Positions 1-31,721 of a stretch of DNA of 64,000 nucleotides are shown here, piece by piece. The position numbers and the translations under genes are program-made. The notes below the pieces were generated by a model. The model saw nothing but the letters and a program-made list of their open reading frames with translations, was not told the origin of the DNA and searched no databases. The stretch comes from Lysobacterales bacterium (lineage in GTDB: Bacteria; Pseudomonadota; Gammaproteobacteria; Xanthomonadales; SZUA-38), in contig JAWVZU010000002.1 of NCBI GenBank assembly GCA_033722075.1, forward strand, positions 3,266-67,265, written 5' to 3'. Position 1 is the first letter of the stretch. Each line of letters opens with the position of its first letter.

Positions 1-420
1 ATCCTGGCTGTACTGGTGGTGGTCGGCCTGCTCTTCGGACTGGTCGGCGGATCGCTTTACCGCAGCATGGATGCGGTCAAGATCCGTCGGGCCGGCAAGG
101 AGGTCGTGAATGCGCTGCGTCACACGCGGGCGCAGGCGATCGTCAAGCGCGAGGAACAGTTCCTGGAGGTGGACATCGAGGAGCGCAGCTACCGGCCGGC
201 CGACGGGGAGCCGAAGCAACTTCCCGATGATGTCGACGTCACCCTGCGCACGGCCTCGATGGACATCCTCAATGAAAAGCAGGGCCGGATCCGCTTCTAC
301 CCGGATGGCTCCTCCACCGGGGGTGAGATCACGCTCATGTCCGGTTCGCACGTGTGGCGAGTCCGGGTGGCATGGCTGACCGGCGAGATCACCCTGGAAG
401 CCAGTAAGGGGGCCTCCTGA
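1..420 (+). CDS. gspH: Type II secretion minor pseudopilin GspH (5' end outside window)
   Basis: Frame 1 is open from the window edge. It shows a hydrophobic pseudopilin helix (ILAVLVVVGLLFGLVGG), then a GspH-like body ending RFYPDGSSTGGEITL. The stop overlaps the gspI start (TGATG). It sits first in an H-I-J-K series. Confidence 0.75.
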   Translation: MLAVLVVVGLLFGLVGGSLYRSMDAVKIRRAGKEVVNALRHTRAQAIVKREEQFLEVDIEERSYRPADGEPKQLPDDVDVTLRTASMDILNEKQGRIRFYPDGSSTGGEITLMSGSHVWRVRVAWLTGEITLEASKGAS

Positions 421-851
421 TGCGGTTCGGTCCGGCTGGTCAACGCGGGTTTACGCTGCTGGAGATCCTGGCGGCGTTCGTGATCTTCGCCCTGGTCTTT
501 GCCACTACGCTGCAGGTGCTGTCCGGGTCCCTGCGCAACACCCGGCAGTCGGCCGAATACACGGAAGCCGCGCTCCGGGCCCAGAGCGTCATGGACAGCG
601 TGGGTGTCGAACCGCTGCTGGAGGTCGGCACCTATGAGGGTGAGCTGGAGAACGGCTACCGCTGGGAAATGGAGATCAGTCAATATGACATTCAGTCCGA
701 GCCGACGCCGGACGGGCGGACCTATGCCAACCTGTTCGAGGTGCCGATCGATCTCTACGAGGTCCAGCTGACCCTGACCTGGGGCGATCCGGACCGCCCG
801 CGCGGCGCGGTCTTCCGTACCCTTCGTTCCGTGACGGCCGAACCCCAATGA
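420..851 (+). CDS. gspI: Type II secretion minor pseudopilin GspI
   Basis: Prepilin-peptidase motif GQRG/FTLLEILAAFVIFAL at the N-terminus. The 143-aa size is typical of GspI. ATGA overlap with the next gene. Confidence 0.85.
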   Translation: MRFGPAGQRGFTLLEILAAFVIFALVFATTLQVLSGSLRNTRQSAEYTEAALRAQSVMDSVGVEPLLEVGTYEGELENGYRWEMEISQYDIQSEPTPDGRTYANLFEVPIDLYEVQLTLTWGDPDRPRGAVFRTLRSVTAEPQ

Positions 852-1540
852 CCCGGCAGAGCGGATTCACGCTGGTTGAGATGCTCCTGGCGATGACCCT
901 GGTGGCCCTCATCCTGGGCATGGCCTACAGTGGCCTGCGGACCAGTGCCAAGGCGGTAGAGCGCGGCGATGACCTGCTGGATCGCTCCAACCGGCTGCGC
1001 ATCGTGCATCAGTTCGTGCGTGCCCAGCTGCGCTCGGTCATGCCGCTGCAGATCCCTCCGGAGAACGATTTCGACGAGGAGATCCTCACCTACTTCGAAG
1101 GCGACGAATCCTCGCTGCATTTTGCCGGGCCCATGCCGGGTTATCTGAGCAACGGCGGGCCCCATGAGCAGCGCCTCTACTTCGACCGGGGCCCGGACGG
1201 AAACCTGGAACTCCTGTTCGATCATGCTCCCTTGCTGCGCGACGAGGAGTGGCCGGAGCAGGAAGAGCGGGAACCGGTGGTCCTGCTGAGCGGAATCCGC
1301 GAAGGACATTTCGAGTACCTGGCCCTCGACGAGGAAGGCGAGCCGGATGAGTGGCAGGCCGAGTGGGAGGAACCGACCACCATTCCCCTGATGGTCCGGA
1401 TTGCCGTGGAGATGGAGCCGTTCACGCGTCAGACCTGGCCCGTGCTCGAGGTGCGGCCGGTACTCGATGCGGCGACCGGCGGTCGCCAGTTGCAGCGCCC
1501 GTTCGTACTGCCGGGATCGCGCCGGGAGGGATCCGGGTGA
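848..1540 (+). CDS. gspJ: Type II secretion minor pseudopilin GspJ
   Basis: Prepilin motif RQSG/FTLVEMLLAMTLVAL. 230 aa. Located between gspI and gspK. Confidence 0.85.
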   Translation: MTRQSGFTLVEMLLAMTLVALILGMAYSGLRTSAKAVERGDDLLDRSNRLRIVHQFVRAQLRSVMPLQIPPENDFDEEILTYFEGDESSLHFAGPMPGYLSNGGPHEQRLYFDRGPDGNLELLFDHAPLLRDEEWPEQEEREPVVLLSGIREGHFEYLALDEEGEPDEWQAEWEEPTTIPLMVRIAVEMEPFTRQTWPVLEVRPVLDAATGGRQLQRPFVLPGSRREGSG

Positions 1541-2409
1541 CCGGGACACGTCAAAAAGGCGTCGCGCTGGTGCTGGTGCTGTGGATGAGCGTTCTCCTGG
1601 CCGTGGTGATCGGGAGTTTTGCCATTGCGGCCCGCACCGAGACATTGCAGGCGCGCCAGCTTTTCGACGGACTCAAGGCGGAGTACGCCGCGCAGGCCGG
1701 ACTGCACCGGGCGGTCTACGAGTTGCGTCGCCCGAACATGGAGGACCGCTGGTTCACCGACGGGCGCGCCTACGAGATCCAGTATGACCAGGCCGAGGTG
1801 GAGATCCGGATCACCGACGAGTCCGGGAAGATCGACATCAACGTGGCCGACGAGGAGTTGCTCGGACGCCTGTTCGATTCAATCGACGTGTCCGAGGATG
1901 CGCGTGACCTGCTGGTCGACGCCATTCTCGATTGGCGCGACCCGGATGACCTGATCCGGATCAACGGGGCCGAAGACGACGACTACCGGTCCGCCGGTTA
2001 CCCTTACGGTGCCAAGGATGCGCCCTTCGATACGATCGGCGAGGTGCAGCAGGTCATGGGGATGGATTACGAGCTCTATCTGGCCATCGAGCCGGCAATC
2101 ACCGTACACTCCGGCCGGCCGGTGCCGGAGCCGGCCTTTGCACCCGTCGAGGTCCTGCGCACGCTGGAGGGCATGGACGAGGCCAGCGCCCTGGATTTCG
2201 TGGCGCAACGGGAACAGAACACGGAATTGGGTGTCCCATTGCCCGTGCTTCCGGATGGTACGACGCCGCTGGCCCGCGGCGGAGGGTACACCTTTACCGT
2301 CGTCAGCACGGCGACCATGCCCAGTGGCGTGACCAATGCCATCGAGGTGACCGTCCGGATGGGTGGCGTCCCCGGTGGGCAGCCATTTCGAATCCTGCGC
2401 TGGAACTGA
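1537..2409 (+). CDS. gspK: Type II secretion minor pseudopilin GspK
   Basis: GTG at 1537 overlaps the gspJ stop (GTGA). The N-terminus QKGVALVLVLWMSVLLAVV lacks Glu+5, as in GspK. GspK-like motifs ITDESGKIDINVA and ILDWRDPDD are present. The ORF-track start at 1351 lies inside gspJ and was not used. Confidence 0.8.
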   Translation: MTGTRQKGVALVLVLWMSVLLAVVIGSFAIAARTETLQARQLFDGLKAEYAAQAGLHRAVYELRRPNMEDRWFTDGRAYEIQYDQAEVEIRITDESGKIDINVADEELLGRLFDSIDVSEDARDLLVDAILDWRDPDDLIRINGAEDDDYRSAGYPYGAKDAPFDTIGEVQQVMGMDYELYLAIEPAITVHSGRPVPEPAFAPVEVLRTLEGMDEASALDFVAQREQNTELGVPLPVLPDGTTPLARGGGYTFTVVSTATMPSGVTNAIEVTVRMGGVPGGQPFRILRWN

Positions 2410-3521
2410 TGATGTCCAATACGTTGACCCAAGCCCTGGAACGCGCTCGCCGACACCGCATGGTGACCGGCTCGGTCGCCTTTCTGCGCTGGTGGCGTGA
2501 CGAGCTGATCGACGGGTTGCCCGAGCTTTGGCGAGCCCGTCTGCGCACGGAAACGGAGCGGTTGTTCGTCGCCTCGGACGGCGACGAGGTCACCGTTCGG
2601 GATAACGCCGGGGAAATCCTCGGGACTTTCCGCGAGTCCGAGGAGCCGGCGATCAGTGCCCAGGTGGTGCAGGGGATTCTGGGCAATCTCGAGGAGGATC
2701 ATCCGGAGATCTACTTTTTGATGGACGAGGCCCGGGTGCTGCAGCGCACCCTGACCCTGCCGGCCGCCGCGGAAGACAACCTCCGCCAGGTCATGCACTA
2801 CGAGATGGATCGGTACACGCCCTTCAAGGCCGATCAGGTCCATTTCGACTGTGAACTGGTGGAGCGTCTTGGGGGTGGTACCCGCCTGCGGGTCAACCTG
2901 CTTGTCGCGCGGCGTGCCGAGGTGGAGGCGGCGGTGCGGTTCTGTCGTGAGCGGAGTCTGGAGCTGCACGGCATCGACGTGATCGGGGCCGACGGCGAGC
3001 GACGCGGGGTGAACCTGCTGCCGCCTGAACTGCGAGCCCACAAGGATCGCCGCCAGCTCAAGTGGAACCTCGCCCTGGCCGGGCTGTTCGTGATCCTGCT
3101 CTAGGGGGTGCTGTGGCAATCGGTCGCTTCCCGCGAGGAGGCGCTGGAGGCCTATCGGATGAAGCTGGACCGGTTGCGGGGCGATGCGGCCGAGGTGGTG
3201 GAACTGCGGGAGGAGCTCGAGGAGTCGGCCGAGGCGGCGCGCTTTCTCGGCGACCAGAAGCGTCGGCGCACGGCGGTGACGGGTCTGCTCGCCGAGCTGA
3301 CCCGGCAGCTGCCGGAGAACACCTGGTTGCAGCGGCTGCAGGTGAACGAGGAAACGGTGCAGATCTCCGGGCAGACCCCGGAGACGGCCCAGCTGGTGGC
3401 TTTGCTCGAAAAGTCGGAGTGTCTGAGGTCGCCGAATATCAAAGGTGCAGTGACGCCCGACCCGCAAAGCGGCAAGGAGCGGTTCACCATCGAGGCGATG
3501 CTTGTCGGAGGCCAGTGCTGA
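2409..3521 (+). pseudogene. gspL: GspL/XpsL-like T2SS inner-membrane platform gene interrupted by a single in-frame TAG (3102-3104)
   Basis: ORFs 2409-3104 and 3108-3521 share one frame, separated only by TAG plus one codon. The context is ...KWNLALAGLFVILL*GVLWQSVASREE..., so the stop lies in the only hydrophobic segment. The combined length of about 370 codons and the position between gspK and gspM fit one GspL. This could be a real nonsense mutation, a sequence error or read-through. Confidence 0.7.
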
Positions 3522-4126
3522 TGGTCGATATCCTGCCCTCCAAGGAACGCCAGCGCCCGCTGGCCTATCTGCTGCTGCTGGTCGCGCTGATCGTCTTCTA
3601 TTACGTGTTCTTCCACCGCTTCATCCTCAGCCATCTGGCGCTGTCCGAGCAGATCGAGCAACTCACCCAGTCCGAGCTTCGTTACCGGGCGGCCATCGCC
3701 CAGAAGCCGGAGCTGCAGGAGCGGCTGGCGGAGCTGCGCCGGGCCCAGACCGAAAGCGATTATTTCCTGGAGCAGGAGAACATCAACCTCGCGTCGTCCG
3801 AACTGACCACCCGGCTCAAGGAGGTCATCTCCCTGCACGCGGAAAACACCGACGAATGCCAGGTGCTGAGCCAGCAGAACATGCGCAACAATACCGACGA
3901 GGAGTTCCAGCGGGTCAGCATCAAGGTCCGGATGCGCTGTGAGATCGCCGATCTGAGCCGGGTCCTGTTCAACCTGGAGGACGGCACGCCCTATCTCTTC
4001 GTCGACAACCTGACCGTATTTCGCCAGGTGACCCGGCGGCGGCGCAACCGCGAGCTGGTGCAGGAGAAGATGCTCGATGTGCGCTTCGACCTGTCCGGTT
4101 ACATCCGCTCGGAGCCGCAGGCATGA
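3521..4126 (+). CDS. gspM: GspM-like T2SS inner-membrane protein
   Basis: ATG 3521 overlaps the gspL stop (TGATG). One N-terminal TM helix (LAYLLLLVALIVFYYVFF) is followed by a domain of about 160 aa. Assigned by architecture and position, not by a strong motif. The 354-aa ORF-track extension was rejected. Confidence 0.65.
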   Translation: MVDILPSKERQRPLAYLLLLVALIVFYYVFFHRFILSHLALSEQIEQLTQSELRYRAAIAQKPELQERLAELRRAQTESDYFLEQENINLASSELTTRLKEVISLHAENTDECQVLSQQNMRNNTDEEFQRVSIKVRMRCEIADLSRVLFNLEDGTPYLFVDNLTVFRQVTRRRRNRELVQEKMLDVRFDLSGYIRSEPQA

Positions 4127-4854
4127 AGCTCTCCCGACTGGTCGGATTGATCCTTGCCGGCGGATGCGCTCTGCTGGTGCTCGTTGCTTTGCTGCTGGGC
4201 GCCGGCGTGGGAACCGGCATCGAGGCCGACGGGGATCCCTCCGAATTCGAGCGTCCGGTTGCCGACGTGGACCAGAGCGGGGGATTCCGGCTGGAGGAAT
4301 TCGACGAGCGCTACGCGGTCATTGCCGAGGCACCGCTGTTCAACGAGGATCGGCTGCCCAGCAGGGACGAACCGGTGGTCGAGGAGTCCGAGGCACCGGG
4401 TTTCGGCGAGCCCGAGCCGGTTCCGCTGAACGTCGTCGTCAAGGGCATCATCATCACCCCGGAGGTGAAGCTTGCGATCGTCACCGACGAACGCAGCAAG
4501 GAAACCCAACGCTTGAAAGAAGGGATGCCGCTGGAAGGCGAGATGGGCGGCTGGACCCTGGCCGAGATCGAACCCAGAAAACTGATTTTCGACAGTGCGT
4601 CGCAGGGACGGGCCGAGGTGGACCTGCAAGTCCATACGAAGGCGCTTGCCGGCGGCGCTGCGCCTGCGCGCACCAACGCGCGGACGGCGAACGAGGACGC
4701 GTCACAGGAACCTGCGGCTGAGAATCAGCAGGGCGCCCAGCCCATGGATGCGGAGGCGCGTGCCGAGGAAATTCGGCGGCGCGTCGCGGAACGGCGGGCT
4801 CAGCTGCGAGCCGAGGCGGAACGTCGGCGACAGGAACAGGCCGACGAGCAGTAG
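4123..4854 (+). CDS. GspC/XpsN-like T2SS protein: N-terminal TM, PilP/HR-like beta domain, charged C-terminal tail
   Basis: ATGA overlap with gspM. TM helix LVGLILAGGCALLVLVALLLGAG. The segment VVKGIIITPEVKLAIVTDERSKETQRLKEGMPLEG..GWTLAEIEPRKLIF resembles the secretin-binding HR/PilP-type domain. The tail is Arg/Glu-rich (EEIRRRVAERRAQLRAEAERRRQEQ). It lies directly upstream of the secretin, as in xps-type clusters. Confidence 0.55.
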   Translation: MKLSRLVGLILAGGCALLVLVALLLGAGVGTGIEADGDPSEFERPVADVDQSGGFRLEEFDERYAVIAEAPLFNEDRLPSRDEPVVEESEAPGFGEPEPVPLNVVVKGIIITPEVKLAIVTDERSKETQRLKEGMPLEGEMGGWTLAEIEPRKLIFDSASQGRAEVDLQVHTKALAGGAAPARTNARTANEDASQEPAAENQQGAQPMDAEARAEEIRRRVAERRAQLRAEAERRRQEQADEQ

Positions 4855-4910: not shown

Positions 4911-7097
4911 TTGAATTGCAGAACCTCAAAGCTCGCAGCGCTGGCGCTGTTGCTTACGGCCTGCGGGAGCCTACCGGTGAGCGACGACGGCCCCGATCAA
5001 GCCACGCGGTCCGCTGCCGGGCCAACGGATCCGGCGGCCGCGGAGGTCGGGGCGGCTCAGCCCGAGAGCGACCCGGCGCCGACGACGGCCAGTCCCGAAC
5101 TTTACCCCGGCAGCGGTCGATTCATCGACTCGGATGCGGCCCAGCGGCCTGCGCTGGATGCGGTGGGAGAGGGGGAGATCATCTTCAATTTCGAAGGTGA
5201 GGCGCTCCAGGCCGTGGTCAAGGCGATCCTCGGCGACCTGTTGCAGGAGAACTACGTGATTTCGCCCGGGATCCAGGGCAACGTCACCTTCTCCACGGCC
5301 AAGCCGGTTCCCATGGACCAGGTGCTGCCTATCCTCGAAATGCTCCTGTCCTGGAACAATGCCGCCCTGGTCTATCGTGACGGCCGCTACCATGTCATGC
5401 CGATCCCGCGGGCCGTGCAGGGCCAGCTGCGCCCGGTCATGGGGCCGCTGGCCGATCAGCGTGGCTACGAGGTTCGCGCCTTTCCGCTGGACTTCATTGC
5501 GCCTGCCGAGATGGAAAAGCTGCTGCGGCCCTATGCCCGGGAGAATGCCTTCGTCAGCGTGGACAACGCGCGAGGCCTGCTGATCCTGGCCGGCACCCGG
5601 GACGAGCTCGAGAACTACCGTCAGACCATCGAGATCTTCGACGTCGATTGGCTGGAGGGTATGTCCGTCGGGGTCTATCCGCTGGAGCGGGTGGAGGCCG
5701 ACACGGTGGTCGGCGAGCTGGAGGCGGTCTTCGGTGAGGGTTCCGGTACGCCCCTGGCGGGCATGTTCCGCTTCATGGCCATCGAGCGGCTGAATGCAAT
5801 CATGGTGATCACGCCGCAGCCGGCCTACCTGGACAAGGCGGTCGAGTGGGTCAAGCGCCTCGATCGGGGCGGCAGCGAGGCAGGAACACGCCTCTATGTT
5901 TATGCCGTGCGCAACGTCAAGGCGACGGACCTGGCCGACACGCTTTCGGACATCTTCAGCGACTCCGGGCGATCGTCCAGCCGTGAGCAACGCCGCGGCT
6001 CGCTGCAGCTGGCTCCCGGCCTGGAAGCCGGCGAGATTTCCTCGATCAACGATCCGCGGCGCCGGCAGCAGCAGGAACAGACCGAGACGGCGGAGCGGCG
6101 ACCGGCGACCCGCGAAAGCGGGGGCGGCGGCATCGCTCTGGTCGACGGGGAAGAGGTACGCATCACCGCCGTGGAAGAATCCAACTCACTGCTGATCCGG
6201 GCCACGCCGGGGCAATACGATGCGGTACTCGGGGCCATCAAGCGCCTGGACATCGTGCCCCTGCAGGTACTGGTGGAGGTCCAGGTGCTCGAGGTCACGC
6301 TGAACGAAAACCTGAGATACGGCGTACAGTGGTTCTTCGAGAGTGCACTCAATGACTTCAGCTTTCCGGGCAGCGGATCCGGCAGCGGCGGCAAGGGCGT
6401 GTTCGACAGCGGCGGCTCGATCAGCGGTGATCGCTATGCCACCGTTTCCGGGGGCGGCGGGCTGAACTATGCGATCCAGGGTGGCGACGCCGCAGCGATC
6501 GTTTCCGCGCTGGAATCGGTGACGGATGTGCGGACGATCTCCGCGCCTTCCATGATGGTGTTGAACAACCGCGAAGCGAACATCAATGTCGGCACCCAGA
6601 TCCCGGTCAATTCCCCGATCTTCAATCTGGGCACCGGGACTGATGTCGGGCGCACCCAGGTGCAGTTCCGGGATACCGGCGTCACGCTCAACGTGGTCCC
6701 CCGGGTCAATCCCGGTGGGATGGTGTTCATGGAAGTGCAGCAGGAAGTCAGTGCGCCGATCGGGTCGGCCGATGCTCAGGGCAACGTGTCGCTTCGCCAG
6801 CGGCGGATCGACACGGAAGTGGCCGTCCAGAGTGACGAAACGGTGGTCCTCGGCGGCCTGATCCAGGCCGACTTCGAAGAAGACCGGAGCGGGCTGCCCT
6901 GGTTATCCCGGATGCCGTTGGTCGGCGGTCTGTTCGGAAACCAGGGACGAGACATCACGCGCACCGAGCTGATTGTGCTGATCACCCCGAAGGTGGTCGC
7001 CAGCATCGAGGAAGCTCGCGCCGTCAGCCGCGAATATCGTGAGCGGATGCGCACGCTGAAGCCCCTGGACTCGGAAAAAGTGGAAATCAATAACTAG
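4911..7097 (+). CDS. gspD: Type II secretion secretin GspD with a lipoprotein signal peptide
   Basis: TTG start preceded by AAGGAG. Lipobox LLLTAC/GS. A Pro/Ala-rich linker precedes the N0-like domain (IIFNFEGEALQAVVKAILGDLL). The C-terminal secretin core reads ISAPSMMVLNNREANINVG...VVLGGLI...IPWLSRMPLVGGLFG...TELIVLITPKVV. Confidence 0.95.
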   Translation: MNCRTSKLAALALLLTACGSLPVSDDGPDQATRSAAGPTDPAAAEVGAAQPESDPAPTTASPELYPGSGRFIDSDAAQRPALDAVGEGEIIFNFEGEALQAVVKAILGDLLQENYVISPGIQGNVTFSTAKPVPMDQVLPILEMLLSWNNAALVYRDGRYHVMPIPRAVQGQLRPVMGPLADQRGYEVRAFPLDFIAPAEMEKLLRPYARENAFVSVDNARGLLILAGTRDELENYRQTIEIFDVDWLEGMSVGVYPLERVEADTVVGELEAVFGEGSGTPLAGMFRFMAIERLNAIMVITPQPAYLDKAVEWVKRLDRGGSEAGTRLYVYAVRNVKATDLADTLSDIFSDSGRSSSREQRRGSLQLAPGLEAGEISSINDPRRRQQQEQTETAERRPATRESGGGGIALVDGEEVRITAVEESNSLLIRATPGQYDAVLGAIKRLDIVPLQVLVEVQVLEVTLNENLRYGVQWFFESALNDFSFPGSGSGSGGKGVFDSGGSISGDRYATVSGGGGLNYAIQGGDAAAIVSALESVTDVRTISAPSMMVLNNREANINVGTQIPVNSPIFNLGTGTDVGRTQVQFRDTGVTLNVVPRVNPGGMVFMEVQQEVSAPIGSADAQGNVSLRQRRIDTEVAVQSDETVVLGGLIQADFEEDRSGLPWLSRMPLVGGLFGNQGRDITRTELIVLITPKVVASIEEARAVSREYRERMRTLKPLDSEKVEINN

Positions 7098-7112
7098 AAC
7101 GGAGCGTACGGA

Positions 7113-7526
7113 ATGATGAGAGTGGTGTTGATTGCGCTGGCCGCGGCCATGCTGGCGGCGTGTGCCGGTCTGGGTCGACCGGTCAGCCTCGAGGAGCGGG
7201 CCCAGGCGCGCTGGGACGCGGTGATCAGCGGCGACTGGGAGCGTGCCTATGCGTACCTGTCCCCGGGAGCCAGGACCGCCATGTCGGAGAGCGCGTTCCG
7301 GGAGCTGATGACCAACCGCACGATCAACTGGACCGGCGCCGAGGTGGTGGAAATCGGAATGTGCGATACGGCGGTCGGCAGCTGCGACGTGATTGTCAAC
7401 GTCGGTTACCGGGTTTCCCGCGGCGTGCCGGGCCTGCGCAAGCCCATAGAACTCACCAAAGGAGTGACCGAAAGCTGGATCGAGGTAGACGGGGCTTGGT
7501 ATTTCGTTCCCGATCGTCTACGATAA
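7113..7526 (+). CDS. Small lipoprotein of unknown function (137 aa)
   Basis: Signal peptide with lipobox AMLAAC/AG. It starts 15 nt after gspD with no terminator between them. I recognise no catalytic motif. Confidence 0.7.
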   Translation: MMRVVLIALAAAMLAACAGLGRPVSLEERAQARWDAVISGDWERAYAYLSPGARTAMSESAFRELMTNRTINWTGAEVVEIGMCDTAVGSCDVIVNVGYRVSRGVPGLRKPIELTKGVTESWIEVDGAWYFVPDRLR

Positions 7527-7599
7527 CGGCACAAAAAGAGATCCAAGGGGGTCGGCGGAAGCCCTTTCCCAACGGCTTTTTCGCCAATCGTGTAAATCA

Positions 7600-7628
7600 T
7601 TGCGTTGTGGATTTCGTTTTTGTACCAT
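7600..7628 (+). promoter_or_regulatory. Candidate sigma70 promoter for the 7732 gene (-35 TTGCGT, 17-nt spacer, -10 TACCAT)
   Basis: It lies in a 205-nt intergenic stretch (7527-7731) that is AT-richer than its surroundings. The hexamers were spotted by eye only. A strong RBS (AGGAG) sits 7 nt before ATG 7732. Confidence 0.25.
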
Positions 7629-7731
7629 GTGGTCGCTCTTTTGTAGCGGAAAGCACTGGCTTAGGCGGGAAATAAGCGACTAAACGTGATTTCTGCCCGA
7701 GTGGCCCTGTGAATGTGTTAGGAGTGTTGTA

Positions 7732-9309
7732 ATGAAGAGAAAAACCTTAACGACTGCTGTGCTCGCTGGCATCGGTGGTGTGGCGGGTATCGCCAACATC
7801 TCCGGCGCCGTGAACCTGAACCCGGATGGTCTGGGCCAGGTTCTTATCTATCCTTTCTATACGGTTAATGGTGGCAACGACACGCTTGTGTCGGTTGTGA
7901 ACACCACTGCTGAAGTCAAGGCCGTCAAGGTCCGCTTCCTCGAGAGCAAGAACTCTCGCGAAGTGCTCGACTTCAACTTGTATCTGTCGCCGTTTGACGT
8001 CTGGGTCGGTGCCGCAACTTCTACCGGTGATACCGGTGCTGCGGTTCTGGTCGTGCCCGATGGCGAAGACAGCTGCACGGTTCCGGCCATCACCGGTCCG
8101 GTTCCGTTCACCAACCTGCTGCTGACCGAGCGGAATGCAGCCGGCTCCGCTTTCATCGACAACAGCATCGAGCGTACCCGTGAGGGCTACATCGAGATGA
8201 TCGAGATGGGCGTGGTCGAGGAAACCGCTGACGCCGTCAAGACGGGTCTGGAAGCGGCTGCTATCCACACCCCGCGCGGTACTGTTCCGGCTAACTGTGG
8301 CGCTCTTGTTGCCGCATGGTCCACCGGCGGTATCTGGCTGCAGGACGAAGACACCGACGTACTGGCGCCGACCGGCGGCCTGTTCGGTGGTGGTTCCGTG
8401 ATCAACGTATTCGGCGGCTACCAGGCCTCCTATACGGCTGACGCGATCGAGGGTTTCTACAACCCGATCAATGGTGACGCTTCCGTAACCGCTGCGGTTC
8501 GGAACACCCTTCACAGCCAGCCGGGTGACACCAACCCGACGCTGCTGCAGACGGACACCACCAACCTGACCGGCGATCCGTCGGTTGACCGTAGCTTCGT
8601 GTTCGATCGTGACCGCGTCGTGACCTCTGACTGGTCGCGTGCGGGCGTTCCGGATGCAGTCAGCGCGACCTTCATGCGCGACTTCATCTACAACGAGTAC
8701 GCAATCGAAACGGTTCTGTTGGGTGCGACCGAGTGGGTTGCCACCTTCCCGACCAAGCGTTTCTACGTTGACCCGGCAATTGCTGGCACCACGGCTATCA
8801 ACCCCTTCACCAACCAGTTTGGTGTGGTTGACGGCATCGGCGCCTGCGAATTCGTCGCTCTGGACTTCTTCGATCGCGAAGAAGACACCACCTTCGTTGT
8901 TGACGAGCCTGTGTTCTCGCCGGCTCCGGTCACCCTGCCGAACGTTCCGTTCCTGTGCTTCGAAGCCCAGGTCATTTCGTTCGGTGAGCCGGGTACCGGC
9001 TTCTTCGGCACCTCACCGTCGACTGTTCTGGGTTCCCCGAACTCGCAGAACATCCCGGTCGAGACCGAAGGCTTCGAGTCCGGTTGGGCTCAGATCGGCT
9101 TCGCGCCGGCTGACGTCGCACAAGGTCTCGGTGTGCGTCACACCATGACCTCGGACGACGGTGACGTCTACAACGGTCTGCCGGTTACCGGTTTCTCGGT
9201 TCAGGTGGTCCGTAATGGCACCATCACCGACGACGCTGGCAACAACGTGCTGTCCAACTACGCTGGCCTGTTCAATCACCGGTCCAGCCGGGACATCATC
9301 GGCAGCTAA
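7732..9309 (+). CDS. Secreted protein of unknown function (525 aa), probably highly expressed
   Basis: Sec signal peptide MKRKTLTTAVLAGIGGVAGIANISGA. Conserved-looking N-terminal block LNPDGLGQVLIYPFYTVNGGNDTLVSVVNTT..VKVRFLESKNSREVLDFNLYLSPFDVW. Codon choice differs from neighbouring genes (many GGT/GCT/GTT/CGT/ACC/TTC codons). It has its own leader and a perfect terminator. Confidence 0.85.
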   Translation: MKRKTLTTAVLAGIGGVAGIANISGAVNLNPDGLGQVLIYPFYTVNGGNDTLVSVVNTTAEVKAVKVRFLESKNSREVLDFNLYLSPFDVWVGAATSTGDTGAAVLVVPDGEDSCTVPAITGPVPFTNLLLTERNAAGSAFIDNSIERTREGYIEMIEMGVVEETADAVKTGLEAAAIHTPRGTVPANCGALVAAWSTGGIWLQDEDTDVLAPTGGLFGGGSVINVFGGYQASYTADAIEGFYNPINGDASVTAAVRNTLHSQPGDTNPTLLQTDTTNLTGDPSVDRSFVFDRDRVVTSDWSRAGVPDAVSATFMRDFIYNEYAIETVLLGATEWVATFPTKRFYVDPAIAGTTAINPFTNQFGVVDGIGACEFVALDFFDREEDTTFVVDEPVFSPAPVTLPNVPFLCFEAQVISFGEPGTGFFGTSPSTVLGSPNSQNIPVETEGFESGWAQIGFAPADVAQGLGVRHTMTSDDGDVYNGLPVTGFSVQVVRNGTITDDAGNNVLSNYAGLFNHRSSRDIIGS

Positions 9310-9336
9310 CAGCCGAGTCAACAGCTCTAGCTGTGG

Positions 9337-9366
9337 AAAGGGGCGCTCTGCGCCCCTTTTCTTATT
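9337..9366 (+). terminator. Rho-independent terminator of the 7732-9309 gene
   Basis: Perfect 10-bp stem AAAGGGGCGC / GCGCCCCTTT with loop TCT, followed by the T-rich tail TCTTATT. It begins 28 nt after the stop codon. Confidence 0.8.
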
Positions 9367-9514
9367 GGGGAAGCGGAACCTTTTCCCTATGATGGAATCG
9401 AAGCTGGCGCGGGTTGGTGGCAGGAATCTTCCGGGAGCCGACCCTAAATTAATTCTTAACACGTGAACTGCCAGCCTGATTTAGAATTGTTGCTCTCCAG
9501 ATTCGGAGTGGACG

Positions 9515-10546
9515 ATGAAAAAAGAACTACAGATCATGATTGCCGCCGCCGCGTTCACCGCGTCGGCAGGCGCCCAAAACAACCTGACCCTGAGCACGGA
9601 TGAAACCGTCACCACCGATGATTGCACAGTGATTCTCCGGTCGGGCGCCGCCGTGGAATTCACTACCGATGGTCTTACGGCCGAGGTGGAAGGTAATCCG
9701 GACGGATGCCTGGCAACAGGCCTGTCCGGTGGCGGTGCTGTGGCCCTTGACGCGGCGCCGTTTGACGAGGTCGAAGAAAATACGACCGTGACCCTGACCT
9801 GGGACGTTCCGGCGAACCACGACTGTACCCTGACCCGGAACGGCGCCACGTTTTTCAGCGATTCCCAGATCGACGCGAATACCTCCACGACCGATACGGT
9901 CAGTGGTGACGTGACTTACCGGATGAACTGCACCAACAGCAAGACTGACCCGCAGTTTGCGCCCGGAACGGAGTCCGCCTTTGCGACCGCGCTGGTCACC
10001 GTCTTGAACAGCGGCGGTGGCGGCGGCGGTGGTGTCGGCGAGTTCTGTGATGCGCAGCCCACCGGCCTCTCCCGGGTTGATCCGGTCGAGTTCCTCTCCA
10101 ACCGCCTCATCGAGGGCAGTTCCTCGACCTACGAGGGTATCTGGGGCCCCTGGGGCGATAGCTCGAGCACCATCTATGTCGAGATGAGCAACGGGCAATA
10201 TGCCTCGCTTCCGTTTGTCATCAGTAATACGCGATCGGACGATTTCGCGATCATGGTCTGGGACCAGATTTCCGAAAGCCCCGAGCAGGTGCGGGTCAGC
10301 GTCTCCACCTGTATCGGTGGTCCGCTCCAGGAAACCTCAGTTCCCCAATCCGGGAATAACTCCTGTTACTTCCAGGGCAGTGGGGTGTCCGGTGGCTTCA
10401 ACATGAAGGCGATCGAATCGACCAGCGGTTGCATCCTGCAAGCCGGTGTTCAGTACTTCTTCAATATCGCATTCGTGGACGCGAACGGTAACGCGGGCTG
10501 CACGCTTCCTGGAGGAAACTGCGCGTGGAACGTCAGCGAGAACTGA
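9515..10546 (+). CDS. Secreted Cys-rich two-domain protein of unknown function (343 aa)
   Basis: Signal peptide MKKELQIMIAAAAFTASAGA/QN with RBS GGAGTGG. The N-terminal beta-rich region and the Cys-rich C-terminal domain are joined by a G7 linker (SGGGGGGGVGE). Confidence 0.75.
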   Translation: MKKELQIMIAAAAFTASAGAQNNLTLSTDETVTTDDCTVILRSGAAVEFTTDGLTAEVEGNPDGCLATGLSGGGAVALDAAPFDEVEENTTVTLTWDVPANHDCTLTRNGATFFSDSQIDANTSTTDTVSGDVTYRMNCTNSKTDPQFAPGTESAFATALVTVLNSGGGGGGGVGEFCDAQPTGLSRVDPVEFLSNRLIEGSSSTYEGIWGPWGDSSSTIYVEMSNGQYASLPFVISNTRSDDFAIMVWDQISESPEQVRVSVSTCIGGPLQETSVPQSGNNSCYFQGSGVSGGFNMKAIESTSGCILQAGVQYFFNIAFVDANGNAGCTLPGGNCAWNVSEN

Positions 10547-12006
10547 TCGGCGCTGCGGCACGGCTCGCCGCATCCGCCATCACCCTGGGGTGCCTAGCAG
10601 CACCCCTTTTTGCGAGCGACCTCGGTCCCGGCGTGCTGGCCCGCCTGGGCCAGGCCGAAGTGACCCAGGCCGACGTCAACGCAGCCCTGCTCGATGTGCC
10701 GGCAGACAAGCGCGACGGCGTCATGAACAGCCCCGACCGGGTCGGCAACCTGCTCCAGACGATCCTCCTGCGACGCGCAATCGTGGCCGATGCGGACCGC
10801 TTCCTGTCCCGATCGGAGATGCGCAAGGCACGGGAGAGCGCACAGGAGGAAGCGCTGGCAACCCTCGCCCTGGAGATGATTCCGGTCGTCAACGACGAGC
10901 GCGCAATCGAACAACGGGCACGCCAGCTCTACGAACGAGAGGCGGCCGCCGCTGCCCGAACCGTTGTAAGCTTCGACCTGATTACCGTTCAGGCAGATGC
11001 GCATGGCTGGGACGGTGCGGAGCGAGTGGCTGCAGAGCAATACGCTGTGCTCCAGGCCGGTGACACGGTCGAAGAGAGCGAAGGAATTACCGTCCGACGC
11101 TTTCAGGACGTGGATCGAACCCAGATTGCCGACGAGTTTCGCGAGCGGATTAGCGACATGCAACCAGGCACTGTCAGCAAACCTTATCCGATGGTCGTAG
11201 GCTATCAGATCCTCGTCTACCGCGGTGCTGAAACACGCCCGCCACCTTCTTTCGAGGATACCCGCTCAACCTGGATGGCGCGTGCGCGGGACGACCTGGC
11301 CGCGGCAGGCCGGCGGGAATTGGCTCAACTGCACGACGAGGCTGGACTGGCAGACCTGGCGAAGGAAGCGGGCCTGGACAATGAGCCGACCGGTGCAGCA
11401 TACCTGCGCCAGGCCGAAGAGGAGGCCCTCCTGGCGGAACTCAAGAACGCGTATTTCGAAGAAGAACTGCAGGGGGACTATTCCGCGCTGGTGCGCGAAC
11501 GCTATGTCACGAGCCGGGCGCAGCATCGCACCCAGCCGCAGGCTGATATCGCGCTGGTGCGGGTTCGCGGTATGCCGGCCGTTGATCAAGGTGAGCTCCG
11601 GGAAAAGCTGGACTCGTACGTCCGCGAGCAGGGGCTCGGCGGATTCGATGAGCGGGTCAAGGCCCTCACCGGCGTGCCCGCAGTCATGGCGTCCTACCAG
11701 CGCCAGGTCCCCTTCAAGATTCTCCGGGATTCCACGGAATTCGCGCTGTACGAGATGCTCGAGCGGGATTGGGTCGCCCATGTTTCGGAGACCGATGGCA
11801 TCGTCAGTTTCGTCGCGATGGCAAACTACGTGCCGTCGCGCCAGAAGGAGTTCGCGGAGGTCGAGGAAGACCTCATGGCCTCCGTTAGCAAGGAGCTCCG
11901 AGAAGCCGCCTGGCGACGCTTTACCGATCCTTACTACAAGCTGGAGCTGGAAGCCGATCCGGAGGCAATTGCCGCCCTGAGAGTGCCCGGCATGGAAGGC
12001 GGCTAA
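10525..12006 (+). CDS. SurA/PpiD-like periplasmic chaperone with two degenerate parvulin-like domains
   Basis: GTG start overlaps the end of the previous gene by 22 nt. Signal peptide ...ITLGCLAAPLFA/SD. SurA-N-like helix bundle (GQAEVTQADVNAALLDVPADKRD...LLQTILLRRAIVADA). Parvulin-like ending PGTVSKPYPMVVGYQILVY. A second, weaker repeat lies in the C-terminal half. The start codon is uncertain. Confidence 0.7.
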   Translation: MERQRELIGAAARLAASAITLGCLAAPLFASDLGPGVLARLGQAEVTQADVNAALLDVPADKRDGVMNSPDRVGNLLQTILLRRAIVADADRFLSRSEMRKARESAQEEALATLALEMIPVVNDERAIEQRARQLYEREAAAAARTVVSFDLITVQADAHGWDGAERVAAEQYAVLQAGDTVEESEGITVRRFQDVDRTQIADEFRERISDMQPGTVSKPYPMVVGYQILVYRGAETRPPPSFEDTRSTWMARARDDLAAAGRRELAQLHDEAGLADLAKEAGLDNEPTGAAYLRQAEEEALLAELKNAYFEEELQGDYSALVRERYVTSRAQHRTQPQADIALVRVRGMPAVDQGELREKLDSYVREQGLGGFDERVKALTGVPAVMASYQRQVPFKILRDSTEFALYEMLERDWVAHVSETDGIVSFVAMANYVPSRQKEFAEVEEDLMASVSKELREAAWRRFTDPYYKLELEADPEAIAALRVPGMEGG

Positions 12007-12021
12007 ACGTCGGCGACCGTC

Positions 12022-12804
12022 ATGTTGCTGAGCCGGACCGAGGTTGCCGTATTCCGCCTTCTGCTCTGGCGGTACGCCCGCGAACGTTATCTCCAGAACT
12101 GGGCAGGCCCACTGTGGGTCATCCTGGTACCGCTGGCCCAGCTCGCAATCTACGCCTTCGTGTTCGTCGAGATCTTCAAGGCACGGGTCCCGGAGGCGGA
12201 CACGGTGGGTTTCGTGCCCTATCTGGCCGTTGCCTTCTGGCCGTGGACAGCGTTTGCCGATGCGGTGATGCGGGCGACGCCTTCGGTGGTCGAGAACCGG
12301 GACCTGATCGGCAAGGTGGCGCTCCCGGCGGAGGCGCTCCCTGCGGCCAGTGCTTCGGCAACATTTCTCCTGACCCTGGCCGGCTACGTGGCGGTGCTGA
12401 TCGTCCTAGCCGCGACGGGTACGCCTATTGGTCTGGTGGGGCTGCCCCTGATGCTGACCATGGTGCTTTGCACCTACTTTCTGGCCTTGGGCCTCTCCCT
12501 TCTCTTCAGCGCCCTGCAGGTCTACGCTCGCGACCTCAATCATGCGCTCGGTCCGCTGTTCATGCTGTGGTTCTTTACCACCCCGATTCTCTATTCCATT
12601 GACCTGATTCCCGAGCGTCTGCGTGGTCTCGCTCAGCTGAATCCGTTCTATTACATCGTCAGCCGCATTCGCGATGCGCTGCTTTTCGATGCTCCCCGTT
12701 TCCGCTTGGCAGATATCGCGTTCCTCGTCGCGAGTGCGCTTTTCATGCTGCTCTGCGTTGCCGTTTTTCGCCGTCTCTCGCGCCGCTTCGAAGACTACCT
12801 ATGA
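12022..12804 (+). CDS. wzm: ABC-2 type polysaccharide/O-antigen export permease
   Basis: 260 aa with about 6 TM segments. The ABC-2 N-terminus is typical (LLWRYARERYLQNWAGPLWVILVPLAQLAIYAFVF). ATGA overlap with the ATPase gene. Confidence 0.85.
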   Translation: MLLSRTEVAVFRLLLWRYARERYLQNWAGPLWVILVPLAQLAIYAFVFVEIFKARVPEADTVGFVPYLAVAFWPWTAFADAVMRATPSVVENRDLIGKVALPAEALPAASASATFLLTLAGYVAVLIVLAATGTPIGLVGLPLMLTMVLCTYFLALGLSLLFSALQVYARDLNHALGPLFMLWFFTTPILYSIDLIPERLRGLAQLNPFYYIVSRIRDALLFDAPRFRLADIAFLVASALFMLLCVAVFRRLSRRFEDYL

Positions 12805-13859
12805 CCGATTGCCTGATCCGTCTGCGAGGTGTCAGCAAGGCGTTTCCCGTTTCCGGAAGCCGCCTTGCGCGACGTGCCAAATCCTGGCGGACGGTTCTTC
12901 ACGGCATCGACCTGGAGCTGCACAAGGGCGAGTCACTCGCGGTGCTCGGGGAAAACGGTGCCGGGAAATCGACCCTGCTCAAGATTATTGCCGGGGTCGC
13001 CCGTGCGACCGCCGGGGAAGTCGCGGTTCAGGGGACCTTCGGCGCCCTGATCGAACTGGGGGCCGGCTTCCATCCGGAGCAGACCGGTCTGGAGAACCTG
13101 AAGGCGGGGGCGACCCTGATGGGTGTGCCGAGGGACGAAATCGGGGAGATTACGGAGCAGGCGATGGCCTTCTCCGGGCTGCGGGACCACGCCGACAAAC
13201 CCCTGAAGCATTACTCGTCGGGGATGGTCGTGCGCCTCGGCTTTGCGATGATTGCCTCCATTCGTCCGGATCTCCTGATCAGCGACGAAGTTCTGGCGGT
13301 CGGTGACGAATCCTTTCAGAAGAAGTGCATTGGCTGGCTCGAGTCCTACCTTGCCGGGGGTGGTACCTTGCTGCTGGTCTCGCACAACCTCTATCACGTA
13401 CAGAAACTCTGCGAACGCGCGGTCTGGTTACATGAGGGTACGATCCGATCGGCCGGGGACACCTTCGAAGTCGTCCAGGAATACCTGGCGTTTCACGAGG
13501 CCCGGCTCGGTCGGGCTTCAACCGCGGCAAACGACGCCGGTTTACCTGGGCTGGCTTTTGCGCCTGAAGGACGGACATCCTACAGCCAGGGAGAAACGGT
13601 CGCCCTGACGCTCGATGGTTCGCCGGAAGCCCCCCTGACATGCGCCCTGCGGCGGCTGAGCGGCGATCTGATCTGGGAACGATCCCTGCCTGTAGAGGCC
13701 GCCGAGTGCGAACTCCCGACCGCCGATCTGTTGCCCGGGCGCTATGTCGTCGAGATCAGCCGGCCGGGCGCAGCGGGCGGGGTGACCCGCCTGTTCCGGA
13801 TCACCGGAGCAAGCCGCGAGTTCGGATCCCTGCGCCTCCCCCACAGCTGGGTCCAGTGA
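12801..13859 (+). CDS. wzt: Polysaccharide export ABC ATPase with C-terminal extension (Wzt-like)
   Basis: Walker [13 protein letters not shown], signature YSSGMVVRLGFA and Walker B LLISDEVLAVGDE. About 110 extra C-terminal residues look like a beta-sandwich (GETVALTLDG...GRYVVEISRP). Confidence 0.9.
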   Translation: MTDCLIRLRGVSKAFPVSGSRLARRAKSWRTVLHGIDLELHKGESLAVLGENGAGKSTLLKIIAGVARATAGEVAVQGTFGALIELGAGFHPEQTGLENLKAGATLMGVPRDEIGEITEQAMAFSGLRDHADKPLKHYSSGMVVRLGFAMIASIRPDLLISDEVLAVGDESFQKKCIGWLESYLAGGGTLLLVSHNLYHVQKLCERAVWLHEGTIRSAGDTFEVVQEYLAFHEARLGRASTAANDAGLPGLAFAPEGRTSYSQGETVALTLDGSPEAPLTCALRRLSGDLIWERSLPVEAAECELPTADLLPGRYVVEISRPGAAGGVTRLFRITGASREFGSLRLPHSWVQ

Positions 13860-14683
13860 TGACCCTCGTTGCGATGCCCGTGTACAACGCCGCTGACGCG
13901 CTTGGCCGTTGCCTCCGCTCCCTGGAACAGCACTTGCCTCCCGAACAAGCCATCGTGATCTGCGATGACGCATCGACCGATGTACGGGTCGGCGAATTGC
14001 TGGATGGGTTCTGTGACCGATCGACACGAACCTTGCTGCGAAATCCCACCAACCGGGGATTCGTCGCGACGGCCAATCGCCTGCTGGATCAGGGGCGGGA
14101 CGATGTTGTCCTGCTCAACTCTGACACGCGGGTCACGCCGAACTGGCTTGCGGCACTGGAGCGCTGCGCCGCATCGGATCCGATGATCGGCACGATCACG
14201 CCGTTTTCCAATCACGCGGAGATCTGTTCCTTTCCCGACTTCTGCCGGCCAAACCCGGTTCCCGCCGATCCCGATGCGGTCGCCCGCGCGATCGCCCGGA
14301 TCGGTCGCCCGACCTATCCGCGGTTGCCGACGGCAGTGGGATTCTGCATGTGGGTCCGGCGTCGGCTGCTCGATGAGATCGGCGCTTTCGACGAGTCGGC
14401 CTTCGGCCGCGGCTACGGCGAGGAAAACGATTTCTGCATGCGAGCTTCCGCTGCGGGTTATCATCACGTCCTGTGTGACGATGCCTATGTTGTCCACGAG
14501 GGCGGCGCGTCCTTCGCCGAGACCGGCCTGAAACCCGGCCCGGAGACCATGGCGCGACTGCTGGCCAAACACCCGGATTACGAGACTCTGGTGCATCGAT
14601 TCATCGCAACCGATCCGATTGCCGCCCGACGGGCCGAGCTGTTGGCCGGCATGAATGCCTACGAGCGCGGCCAGTTGGCCTGA
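13859..14683 (+). CDS. Family 2 glycosyltransferase
   Basis: ATG 13859 overlaps the wzt stop. GT2 hallmarks are present: MPVYNAADALGRCLRSL, ICDDASTD, LLNSDTRV, GFCMWVRRRLLDEIGAFDE..GYGEENDFCMRA. The ORF-track start at 13640 was rejected. Confidence 0.85.
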   Translation: MTLVAMPVYNAADALGRCLRSLEQHLPPEQAIVICDDASTDVRVGELLDGFCDRSTRTLLRNPTNRGFVATANRLLDQGRDDVVLLNSDTRVTPNWLAALERCAASDPMIGTITPFSNHAEICSFPDFCRPNPVPADPDAVARAIARIGRPTYPRLPTAVGFCMWVRRRLLDEIGAFDESAFGRGYGEENDFCMRASAAGYHHVLCDDAYVVHEGGASFAETGLKPGPETMARLLAKHPDYETLVHRFIATDPIAARRAELLAGMNAYERGQLA

Positions 14684-14690
14684 TCCGGAC

Positions 14691-15581
14691 ATGGAATTCA
14701 CCGGTGAAAGGTTCCTGCCCGAGTGCCAGCGCGAGATCTGGTACGAGCATTTCCATCGCTATGTCTTCGCGCGTCACCTCGCCCGGAACCGCCGTGTCCT
14801 GGATCTGGCCTGCGGGGAGGGCTATGGCGCTTCCCTGTTGTCGGACGTCGCCCGGCAGGTCATAGCGGTCGATCGATCAGGGGAGGCAGTCGTGCATGCC
14901 CGGGGCGAGTACGGGAACGACCGCCTGGTGTTGGTCCAGGGGGACGCGTCAGCGATCCCGCTGGCCGACGCGAGCGTCGATCTGGTCGTATCCTTCGAGA
15001 CCCTGGAGCATCTCGAAGCCCAGACCGAAATGGTCGGTGAATTCGCCCGGGTACTCCGAAAAGACGGCCTGGTGTTGATTTCCAGCCCGGACAAACGCAC
15101 CTATAGTGACGAGCGGGACTATACCAACGAGTTTCACGTCCGGGAGCTGTACCTTGAAGAATTCAAGGCCCTGCTCGCGGAACACTTCCCGGCGGTGCGC
15201 TTGTTCGGCCAGAAGCTGGGCTTCCACTCGGTGATCTGGGATCCCGAATCGGCCCACGGCGGCAAGGTGACCGCCGAGGCCGTCGCCCGGGATGATGCCG
15301 AACCCGGCCCCTGGCAGCCATCACCGATGTACTGGATCGGCGTGTGCGCGGCCGCTCCGGGGGCGCTGGAACGGGCGGGCCTGACGGATCTGGCCCTGTT
15401 TGCCGATACCGAGGAATCGGTCTACGCGCATTACGAGCACGAGATCCGCAAGAACATGGCTGCCGGTGGGATCATCGCCGAGCGCGACCAGCGAATCGCC
15501 GAACTCGAAGCCCGTTTGGCGGATCGGGACCACAATATGCCGGGCTGGCTGCAACGACTTACAAGAAAAATACTGAAATAA
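14691..15581 (+). CDS. Class I SAM-dependent methyltransferase with C-terminal coiled-coil tail
   Basis: Motif I VLDLACGEGYG, then motifs DLVVSFETLEHL and GLVLISSPD. The C-terminal heptad-like segment reads IIAERDQRIAELEARLADRD. Confidence 0.85.
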   Translation: MEFTGERFLPECQREIWYEHFHRYVFARHLARNRRVLDLACGEGYGASLLSDVARQVIAVDRSGEAVVHARGEYGNDRLVLVQGDASAIPLADASVDLVVSFETLEHLEAQTEMVGEFARVLRKDGLVLISSPDKRTYSDERDYTNEFHVRELYLEEFKALLAEHFPAVRLFGQKLGFHSVIWDPESAHGGKVTAEAVARDDAEPGPWQPSPMYWIGVCAAAPGALERAGLTDLALFADTEESVYAHYEHEIRKNMAAGGIIAERDQRIAELEARLADRDHNMPGWLQRLTRKILK

Positions 15582-15585
15582 CGCC

Positions 15586-20809: not shown

Positions 20810-20930
20810 GGATCTCGGATTCTGCACGAAGGGGCGCGCATTATCGTCGATCTATCGCCGATCGCAAACCCGCGCCCTGCGACCGGACATCCATTACAAT
20901 AGTGGTTTCACTGCAGCAACAGGATGTCCC

Positions 20931-22748: not shown

Positions 22749-22770
22749 CCCGCTGACCCGATTTCGGCCC

Positions 22771-24464: not shown

Positions 24465-24469
24465 TCGCC

Positions 24470-25613
<1,144 letters not shown>

Positions 25614-25627
<14 letters not shown>

Positions 25628-31714: not shown

Positions 31715-31721
31715 TCACACC

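Follow-up and report, generated by a model that had tools for sequence, protein, structure and literature searches.

A probable NpdA-family S-layer protein gene beside a type II secretion operon in an uncultured Xanthomonadales genome

We examined a 64,000-nt stretch of DNA from an uncultured Lysobacterales bacterium (Xanthomonadales, SZUA-38; assembly GCA_033722075.1, contig JAWVZU010000002.1, positions 3,266 to 67,265 of the forward strand), here called the window. In it a plus-strand gene for a 525-aa protein precursor (7732..9309, ATG start) lies between a type II secretion system (T2SS) operon and a set of glycan export genes. The gene is a homolog of npdA, whose product forms the surface layer (S-layer) of Paracidovorax citrulli. 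Judged from its sequence, it likely encodes an NpdA-family S-layer subunit that would be exported by Sec, probably secreted by the T2SS and possibly tethered to a glycan.

The gene, its flanking signals and its protein

The gene is preceded by a 205-nt leader (7527..7731, plus strand) that begins where the upstream gene ends (7526) and is AT-richer than the window as a whole (GC about 0.49-0.51, against 0.647). The Shine-Dalgarno sequence AGGAG occupies 7720-7724, leaving a 7-nt gap to the ATG at 7732. Promoter-like hexamers were detected through conservation only: TTGCGT (7600-7605) and TACCAT (7623-7628), separated by a 17-nt spacer. Across genomes this block reads TTGC(G/A)(T/C)-N17-TAC(C/T)AT, matching about 7 of the 12 sigma-70 consensus positions. 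Further boxes are GTCGCTCTT (7631-7639), GCCCTGT (about 7703-7709) and TTAGGAGTGTTGT(A/G)ATGAAGA (7718-7738). The leader looks functional, because these blocks are invariant in eight genomes whose NpdA proteins are just 51-55% identical to the one encoded here. Structure in the leader RNA found no support from covariation; the sole consistent helix joins the GCCCUG box to the Shine-Dalgarno region and is uninformative, since both of its sides never vary. The single-sequence fold of the leader was no better than that of shuffled sequences (z = -1.1).

Past the stop codon, RNAfold predicts an intrinsic-terminator-like hairpin (9335..9366, plus strand) with a 12-bp stem, a 3-nt loop (stem and loop together 9335-9361) and a U-rich tail. 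It contains a perfect 10-bp stem, AAAGGGGCGC/GCGCCCCTTT, starting at 9337, the 28th nt past the stop, and the 66-nt stretch that holds it (9310-9375) folds at -29 kcal/mol (z = -2.7 against shuffles). A simple consensus scan picked up no sigma-70 promoter and missed this terminator, which was confirmed by folding instead. An Rfam search of 7000-10000 returned no family, and its lone sub-threshold small RNA match was the terminator hairpin itself.

The predicted protein begins with MKRKTLTTAVLAGIGGVAGIANISGA, followed by VNL, which gives a basic n-region, a hydrophobic core (Kyte-Doolittle segment 9-27) and small residues at -3 and -1. The n/h/c layout of a signal peptidase I substrate can be read as MKRK-TLTTAVLAGIGGVAGIA-NISGA ahead of VNL, with S-G-A at -3 to -1. 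The predicted signal peptide, residues 1-26 by its inferred cleavage site, aligns with the 25-aa signal peptide of P. citrulli NpdA. The mature protein would have 499 aa, a mass of 52.8 kDa and a pI of 4.1; V, G, T and A are frequent in it and C, M, K and H scarce, with four Cys in all (115, 189, 372 and 409). An AlphaFold2 (AF2) model (predicted local distance difference test score, pLDDT, 84.9; predicted template-modelling score, pTM, 0.88) is beta-rich and multi-domain, with no barrel. The secondary-structure and domain pattern of this model and the absence of matches to outer-membrane protein families speak against a porin or other outer-membrane beta-barrel.

A first-pass annotation of this DNA had already described the 525-aa reading frame, its clean Sec signal peptide and its four Cys, as well as the AT-richer 205-nt leader, a strong ribosome-binding site (AGGAG) 7 nt from the ATG, and a perfect 10-bp-stem terminator with a T-tail 28 nt after the stop. 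All of these we find as described, with the terminator stem extended to 12 bp by RNAfold. The leader had also been taken for the longest non-coding stretch in this part of the window; it is tied for that, the spacer 3′ of the gene (9310-9514) being likewise 205 nt, while the remaining spacers of the cluster are at most 56 nt. The gene had been called stand-alone, which suits its own promoter-like blocks and terminator and does not suit its place within a conserved cluster of about 20 kb.

Membership in the NpdA family

NpdA ("nanopod protein A") first came to light in Delftia acidovorans Cs1-4 (PMC3110197). It was established as the S-layer protein of P. citrulli by gene deletion, mass spectrometry and cryo-electron microscopy (cryo-EM), and was called a new family by the authors of that work (Gajbhiye et al., 2023; PMC10765051). 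P. citrulli NpdA, annotated as a "hypothetical protein", has a predicted signal peptide of 25 aa (SignalP 6) and a mature form of 52.4 kDa; it shows no conserved domain, and its S-layer oligomers are SDS-stable. The same survey listed 62 betaproteobacterial and 49 gammaproteobacterial species that carry an npdA ortholog, among them Nitrincola alkalilacustris, Wenzhouxiangella, Chiayiivirga, Rudaea and Dokdonella. Of 16 further npdA-bearing cultures, 15 showed an S-layer by cryo-EM, one of them the xanthomonad Rudaea cellulosilytica; the gammaproteobacterial carriers with imaging evidence include Rudaea, Congregibacter and Haliea (PMC10765051).

Pfam and NCBIfam scans of the protein encoded in the window gave no match. 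P. citrulli NpdA (strain AAC00-1, WP_011797163; P0268 in our set) was found by BLASTP with E 8e-33 and 29% identity over residues 1-455, and a profile of the family aligned with it by hhalign at 100% probability (E 7e-41, residues 1-532). The protein is also 35% identical, over its full length (E 4e-75), to a protein of Wenzhouxiangella AB-CW3 that counts as an ortholog in the published survey (PMC10765051). It thus resembles the NpdA of P. citrulli and Delftia Cs1-4 in its full-length homology to the P. citrulli protein, its Sec signal, its mature size of about 52 kDa and its want of a Pfam domain. It differs from the validated betaproteobacterial proteins in belonging to a gammaproteobacterial branch for which the evidence is imaging only.

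The family is large: there are at least 3,580 matches in a 90%-clustered database, essentially all labelled "hypothetical protein", and at least 4,400 clusters at 50% identity (4,413 with E <= 1e-3). It occurs in at least 556 species genomes, mostly of Lysobacterales/Xanthomonadales (Dokdonella, Chiayiivirga, Rudaea, Aquimonas, Wenzhouxiangella, Marinicella, Ahniella) and also in Nitrincola and Halomonas, and the genera of these genome matches coincide with the ortholog table of PMC10765051. Some members of about 930-975 aa (P0121, P0122, P0124-P0126 and others) consist of two full NpdA-like units in tandem, and one reaches 1,647 aa. The NCBI name for the Comamonadaceae members is now "cell surface protein".

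We aligned 14 gammaproteobacterial and 14 betaproteobacterial NpdA members (alignment A5). There are 57 invariant columns, and the protein of the window carries the family residue in 57/57. The invariant residues include K66-V67-R68, D80-F81, C115, E155, H179, W335, P340-T341, R382-E383-E384, F395-S396-P397, G451-W452, G482-L483-P484 and H516. The most conserved segment of the family is the N-terminal 100 or so residues of the mature protein, which would suit a role in anchoring or export recognition, a conjecture on our part. Charged motifs are strictly kept across Beta- and Gammaproteobacteria: T-R-E-G-x-x-E-x-x-x-M (148-159), D-R-E-E (382-384) and His 179, 261 and 516. They could be metal-binding, glycan-binding or export-recognition sites. 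By every test of membership open to computation, the protein is a member of the NpdA family, in its gammaproteobacterial (Xanthomonadales-type) branch. The label "unknown function" given in the first pass is accordingly out of date for a family named in 2011 and surveyed in 2023.

Searches of PDB sequences, whether run with the protein itself or with a profile of the family, gave no significant match, and Foldseek of the AF2 model against PDB gave nothing at E <= 0.001; an S-layer relative was found in PDB by neither the sequence nor the fold searches. The nearest Foldseek result is a weak similarity of one domain to galectin/ConA-like beta-sandwiches (about 150 columns, E about 0.02-0.2), too weak for us to accept as evidence of a lectin function. 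That similarity would nonetheless fit a soluble and abundant T2SS cargo, a lectin or a polysaccharide-acting enzyme in which the NpdA fold had been recruited to another extracellular role. The invariant E155, R382-E383-E384, H179, H261 and H516 are readable as a binding or catalytic site, identity to validated NpdA is about 29%, and the ortholog in AB-CW3 is not the top protein of its proteome. We think a soluble cargo unlikely nevertheless: the identical invariant residues occur in validated S-layer proteins, no enzyme family was matched in Pfam, NCBIfam or PDB, an S-layer has been imaged in Rudaea and other gammaproteobacterial npdA carriers, and the architecture of the locus is the same as that of the validated P. 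citrulli locus.

The T2SS-linked cluster

Genes were called and Pfam was run on the source contig (L087, 71.5 kb; a window coordinate is the L087 coordinate minus 2888). The full order is gspE-F-G-H-I-J-K-L-M-N-D, a gene for a 137-aa lipoprotein, npdA, a 343-aa open reading frame (ORF), a peptidyl-prolyl isomerase (PPIase) gene, wzm, wzt, a family 2 glycosyltransferase (GT2), an S-adenosylmethionine (SAM) methyltransferase, a 600-aa protein and a second GT2; gspE, gspF and gspG precede the window start. All features of the cluster within the window are on the plus strand. The distal T2SS operon (1..4854; Pfam GspH, N_methyl, T2SSK_1st and T2SSM_b) comprises gspH (cut at the window start, to 420), gspI (420-851), gspJ (848-1540), gspK (1537-2409), the PilN-like gspL (2412-3521), gspM (T2SSM_b; 3521-4126) and gspN (XpsN; 4123-4854). 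It is followed by gspD (4911..7097), encoding a 728-aa secretin (Pfam Secretin 6e-45, Secretin_N 7e-30, GspD N0).

Between gspD and npdA is a small lipoprotein gene, "ORF X" (7113..7526; 137 aa, lipobox LAAC), which is present at this place in nearly all of about 80 homolog loci. The corresponding place in P. citrulli holds a 139-aa ORF that encodes a homolog (E 2e-11), and both products have a lipobox. A predicted NTF2-like fold comes from an AF2 model of pLDDT 82, built on a shallow alignment in which the homolog search gave just three proteins; its Foldseek matches are YchJ, the N-terminal domain of PBP2a and the CaMKII hub (E 2e-5 to 1e-3). A pilotin role is unsupported by this model, as the predicted fold is NTF2-like and there was no T2SS pilotin among the PDB matches listed.

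Downstream of npdA lies a gene for a putatively secreted Cys-rich protein of 343 aa (9515..10546) with a signal peptide, a poly-Gly linker (GGGGGGG), moderate codon bias and no match in Pfam or NCBIfam scans. Homologs occur in the closest loci only; elsewhere this slot, ahead of the PPIase gene, holds an unrelated ORF of 383 aa, of 426 aa with Flg_new_2 or, in AB-CW3, of 361 aa, and in P. citrulli it is empty. The 343-aa product may be an accessory S-layer or surface component. The next gene (10525..12006) encodes a 493-aa PpiC/SurA-like PPIase homolog with an N-terminal signal or anchor. Its Rotamase_2 match is weak (4e-4, below the Pfam cut-off), and the syntenic ORFs in four other loci (L001, L003, L004 and L086) match Rotamase families. 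A PPIase gene is kept downstream of npdA from Comamonadaceae to Xanthomonadales.

The cluster closes with an ATP-binding cassette (ABC)-transporter-dependent glycan module (12022..18236): wzm (12022-12804), wzt (12801-13859), a GT2 gene (13859-14683), a SAM methyltransferase gene (14691-15581), a gene for a conserved cytoplasmic protein of 600 aa (15586-17388) and another GT2 gene (17385-18236). The module is syntenic in most of the 80 or so loci and in P. citrulli, and the cytoplasmic protein of about 600 aa, which has no known domain, is syntenic within it in most loci.

Synteny was assessed by tblastn of each window protein against 85 homolog loci, and the same gene order and strand were found in essentially all loci that reach far enough (about 80). 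One locus alone, in a Rhodanobacteraceae metagenome-assembled genome (MAG; L036, JANOQN010000002.1, match 10001-11671), has no T2SS, lipoprotein or glycan genes within 10 kb either side; its npdA homolog may be a stand-alone paralog. P. citrulli npdA is known to lie downstream of a 12-gene gsp cluster with one small ORF between (PMC10765051). We find there the T2SS genes, the 139-aa ORF, npdA, and genes for PPIase, Wzm, Wzt (with Wzt_C), a methyltransferase and glycosyltransferases. The window locus is thus like that of P. citrulli in the gsp operon and lipoprotein gene before npdA and in the PPIase, wzm, wzt, methyltransferase and glycosyltransferase genes after it. It differs in having the extra 343-aa secreted ORF before the PPIase gene and a Wzt without detectable Wzt_C. 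Published accounts of the npdA locus (PMC10765051; PMC3110197) describe the gsp genes and the small ORF that precede npdA and do not mention the PPIase and glycan genes that follow it.

Other S-layer systems share parts of this layout. The A-layer subunit of Aeromonas (VapA/AhsA) is also a Sec-dependent protein of about 50 kDa encoded directly after a T2SS cluster, and the linked Sps/Aps T2SS has been described as a dedicated S-layer exporter (PMC4483657; PMC4413209). In A. salmonicida, the O-antigen cluster has vapA and the linked T2SS lodged between wzm and wzt, and lipopolysaccharide tethers the A-layer (PMC4483657). In the window, by contrast, wzm and wzt both follow npdA and do not flank the S-layer genes. 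The Aeromonas tether has experimental support, whereas a tether here would be read from genes, and the likeness drawn here is one of locus layout. Slr4 of Pseudoalteromonas tunicata (PMC7821379) likewise has a Sec signal peptide and a gene directly after a conserved T2SS cluster; its description sets it apart as a separate family, mainly of marine Gammaproteobacteria, whose model threads onto RsaA. RsaA of Caulobacter crescentus is itself a Gram-negative S-layer protein, O-antigen anchored, with adjacent secretion genes. RsaA is type I-secreted without a cleaved signal peptide, whereas the protein of the window has a Sec signal and a T2SS neighbor. An RsaA-like RTX protein is not what we find here: the N-terminal Sec signal is present, the adjacent ABC transporter is of the Wzm/Wzt type, and the Pfam scan matched no RTX or HlyD-type family among the neighborhood proteins.

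The protein could be an S-layer or cell-surface protein that leaves the cell by another route, its T2SS linkage reflecting co-regulation or co-inheritance. In favor are the authors' own statement that T2SS dependence of NpdA secretion still awaits testing, and the orthologs of Thiothrix, Nitrosococcus and relatives, which are retained without many gsp genes (gspE-K or gspE-I) (PMC10765051). Because of these last, the linkage is not absolute, and the Rhodanobacteraceae homolog with no cluster genes nearby points the same way. Yet nearly all of the 80 or so loci, which come from several orders, share one order and strand of gsp operon, lipoprotein gene and npdA, and Betaproteobacteria have it too. 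AB-CW3 encodes a second gspC-F cluster elsewhere, which fits a dedicated T2SS at npdA and is consistent with the npdA-linked one being a specialised system, and the analogous linked T2SS of Aeromonas is the dedicated exporter mentioned above. We hold export by another route to be improbable.

Codon usage, abundance and the proposed assembly

Since the window has no ribosomal-protein genes, a within-window codon test and a cross-genome comparison of npdA with its neighbors were used instead of a codon adaptation index. Over the whole gene the 56 Gly codons are 29 GGT, 27 GGC, 0 GGA and 0 GGG, against a background of 32.5% GGR (GGA or GGG) in the 41 other ORFs of the window (binomial P = 2.8e-10). 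GCT makes up 21/50 Ala codons (8% background, P = 8e-15) and GTT 37% of Val codons (13% background, P = 1e-5); CCG and CGT are likewise significantly enriched, and minor Arg codons are fewer. There is no general drift toward AT (TTT 2/31 Phe, AAT 5/30 Asn), and the preference for TTC, AAC and ACC does not differ significantly from that of the neighbors. The first pass had read GGT and GGC as the only Gly codons in about the first 250, and this extends to all 56/56. It had also listed GCT, GTT, CGT, ACC, TTC and AAC as abundant and set apart from the flanking genes; the first three are enriched and the last three are no different from the neighbors. Because GGA and GGG are absent and GGT, GCT, GTT and CGT are up while TTT and AAT are not, the shift is selective, which speaks against a foreign origin or a mere drift toward AT. 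Codons of the GGT/GCT/GTT/CGT type are those that translation favors in strongly expressed gammaproteobacterial genes.

The cross-genome test compared npdA homologs with the flanking cluster genes of their own genomes at 80 loci. The homolog uses a smaller fraction of GGR codons at 79/80 loci (median 0.035, and 0.226 in the flanking genes), fewer minor Arg codons at 77/80 and more GCT at 80/80. Recent horizontal acquisition, for which one could cite a GC content at third codon positions of 0.73 (about 0.80 in many neighbors) and the AT-richness of the gene and both spacers, is very unlikely as the source of the atypical codons, given the selective shift just described, the same direction of bias against their own flanking genes in 77-80 of the 80 loci, a gene that is syntenic and vertically distributed with its cluster, and an ortholog well expressed as protein.

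That ortholog is the 514-aa protein of Wenzhouxiangella AB-CW3, encoded by the ORF that follows XpsD and a 145-aa ORF. In the AB-CW3 proteome it scores 0.34, 0.30 and 0.25 in three conditions, on a par with DnaN (0.17-0.29) and AhpC (0.13-0.20), where T2SS components score about 0.001-0.08 (PMC7691419). The PPIase encoded beside it scores 0.25-0.51, equal to NpdA or above, and the lipoprotein ortholog is fairly abundant at 0.13-0.19 (PMC7691419). The abundance of NpdA in this proteome may be underestimated, as SDS-stable S-layer oligomers could be under-sampled. Very high expression, as the first pass had proposed, agrees with the codon bias conserved across 80 genomes and with a well expressed ortholog; it goes too far in that AB-CW3 has a protein more abundant than the ortholog.

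The first-pass guess of a surface-layer component or secreted cargo gains support from the full-length NpdA homology and the same T2SS-linked locus. That this protein forms an S-layer we infer from the experimental record of its family. The precursor would be exported by Sec and cleaved after Ala26, then would fold in the periplasm, probably using the conserved Cys and the adjacent PpiC/SurA-like isomerase. The co-encoded T2SS would drive the subunit through the GspD secretin, a step suggested by conserved synteny and by Aeromonas, and the subunit would self-assemble into a paracrystalline coat on the outer membrane. More speculatively, the coat may be tethered to a glycan made and exported by the adjacent Wzm/Wzt, glycosyltransferase and methyltransferase genes.

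Several points weigh against this reading, in addition to the pending test of T2SS dependence and the carriers with few gsp genes noted above. The source is a MAG of an uncultured member of Xanthomonadales, in which an S-layer role is predicted from sequence, and identity to the validated NpdA is just about 29%. One npdA-bearing culture, P. valerianellae, was without a clear bead-like S-layer (PMC10765051). The top protein of AB-CW3 is a TonB-dependent receptor, with the npdA ortholog abundant and not dominant (PMC7691419). Charged motifs as strict as TREGxxE and DREE are unusual among S-layer proteins, a class that normally diverges fast. The glycan anchor is speculative, coming from synteny and analogy only, and the Wzt of the window (352 aa) had no Wzt_C match in the Pfam scan, while those of P. 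citrulli, L003 and L004 have Wzt_C.

A wider proposal, which we put forward tentatively and with rather less confidence than the identity of the subunit, is that the npdA locus could be a self-contained S-layer biogenesis module of about 20 kb, found from Comamonadaceae to Xanthomonadales. Its parts would be a dedicated T2SS, an NTF2-like outer-membrane lipoprotein, the subunit, a dedicated periplasmic PPIase and a dedicated Wzm/Wzt-exported glycan as anchor (possibly methyl-capped), an assignment just as tentative. In this Xanthomonadales sub-clade the variable slot might, on the same uncertain footing, supply a second, Cys-rich secreted component.

A family labelled "hypothetical protein", with no Pfam or NCBIfam model, can in this way be named as an S-layer protein, and the naming would tell what coats the cells of many uncultured Xanthomonadales and related Gammaproteobacteria. 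The conserved linkage of T2SS, NTF2-like lipoprotein, npdA, PPIase and Wzm/Wzt genes suggests a broad Gram-negative pathway of S-layer assembly and anchoring that parallels the one in Aeromonas. Having a confident AF2 model and no fold relative in PDB, the family is a sensible candidate for an experimental structure. Nothing here overturns what is currently understood. What may be new is modest: the downstream PPIase and Wzm/Wzt module, the variable second secreted ORF, the conserved promoter-like blocks, and the existence of so large a family with no domain model or solved fold relative.

The rest of the window (19136-64000, with ORFs before 50356 scanned) holds ordinary housekeeping genes. 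These include an ABC-F ATPase gene (19136-20827, minus strand), glyA (20808-22193), ribD-ribE-ribBA-ribH (22582-26084) and a gene for a BON-domain protein; LpoA/LppC (28422-30317, minus strand); sulfotransferase, phosphodiesterase and sulfatase genes (31650-36162); and the dcw cluster (36344-50247), which runs from mraZ/rsmH through the mur genes, ftsW, ddl and ftsQ to ftsA.

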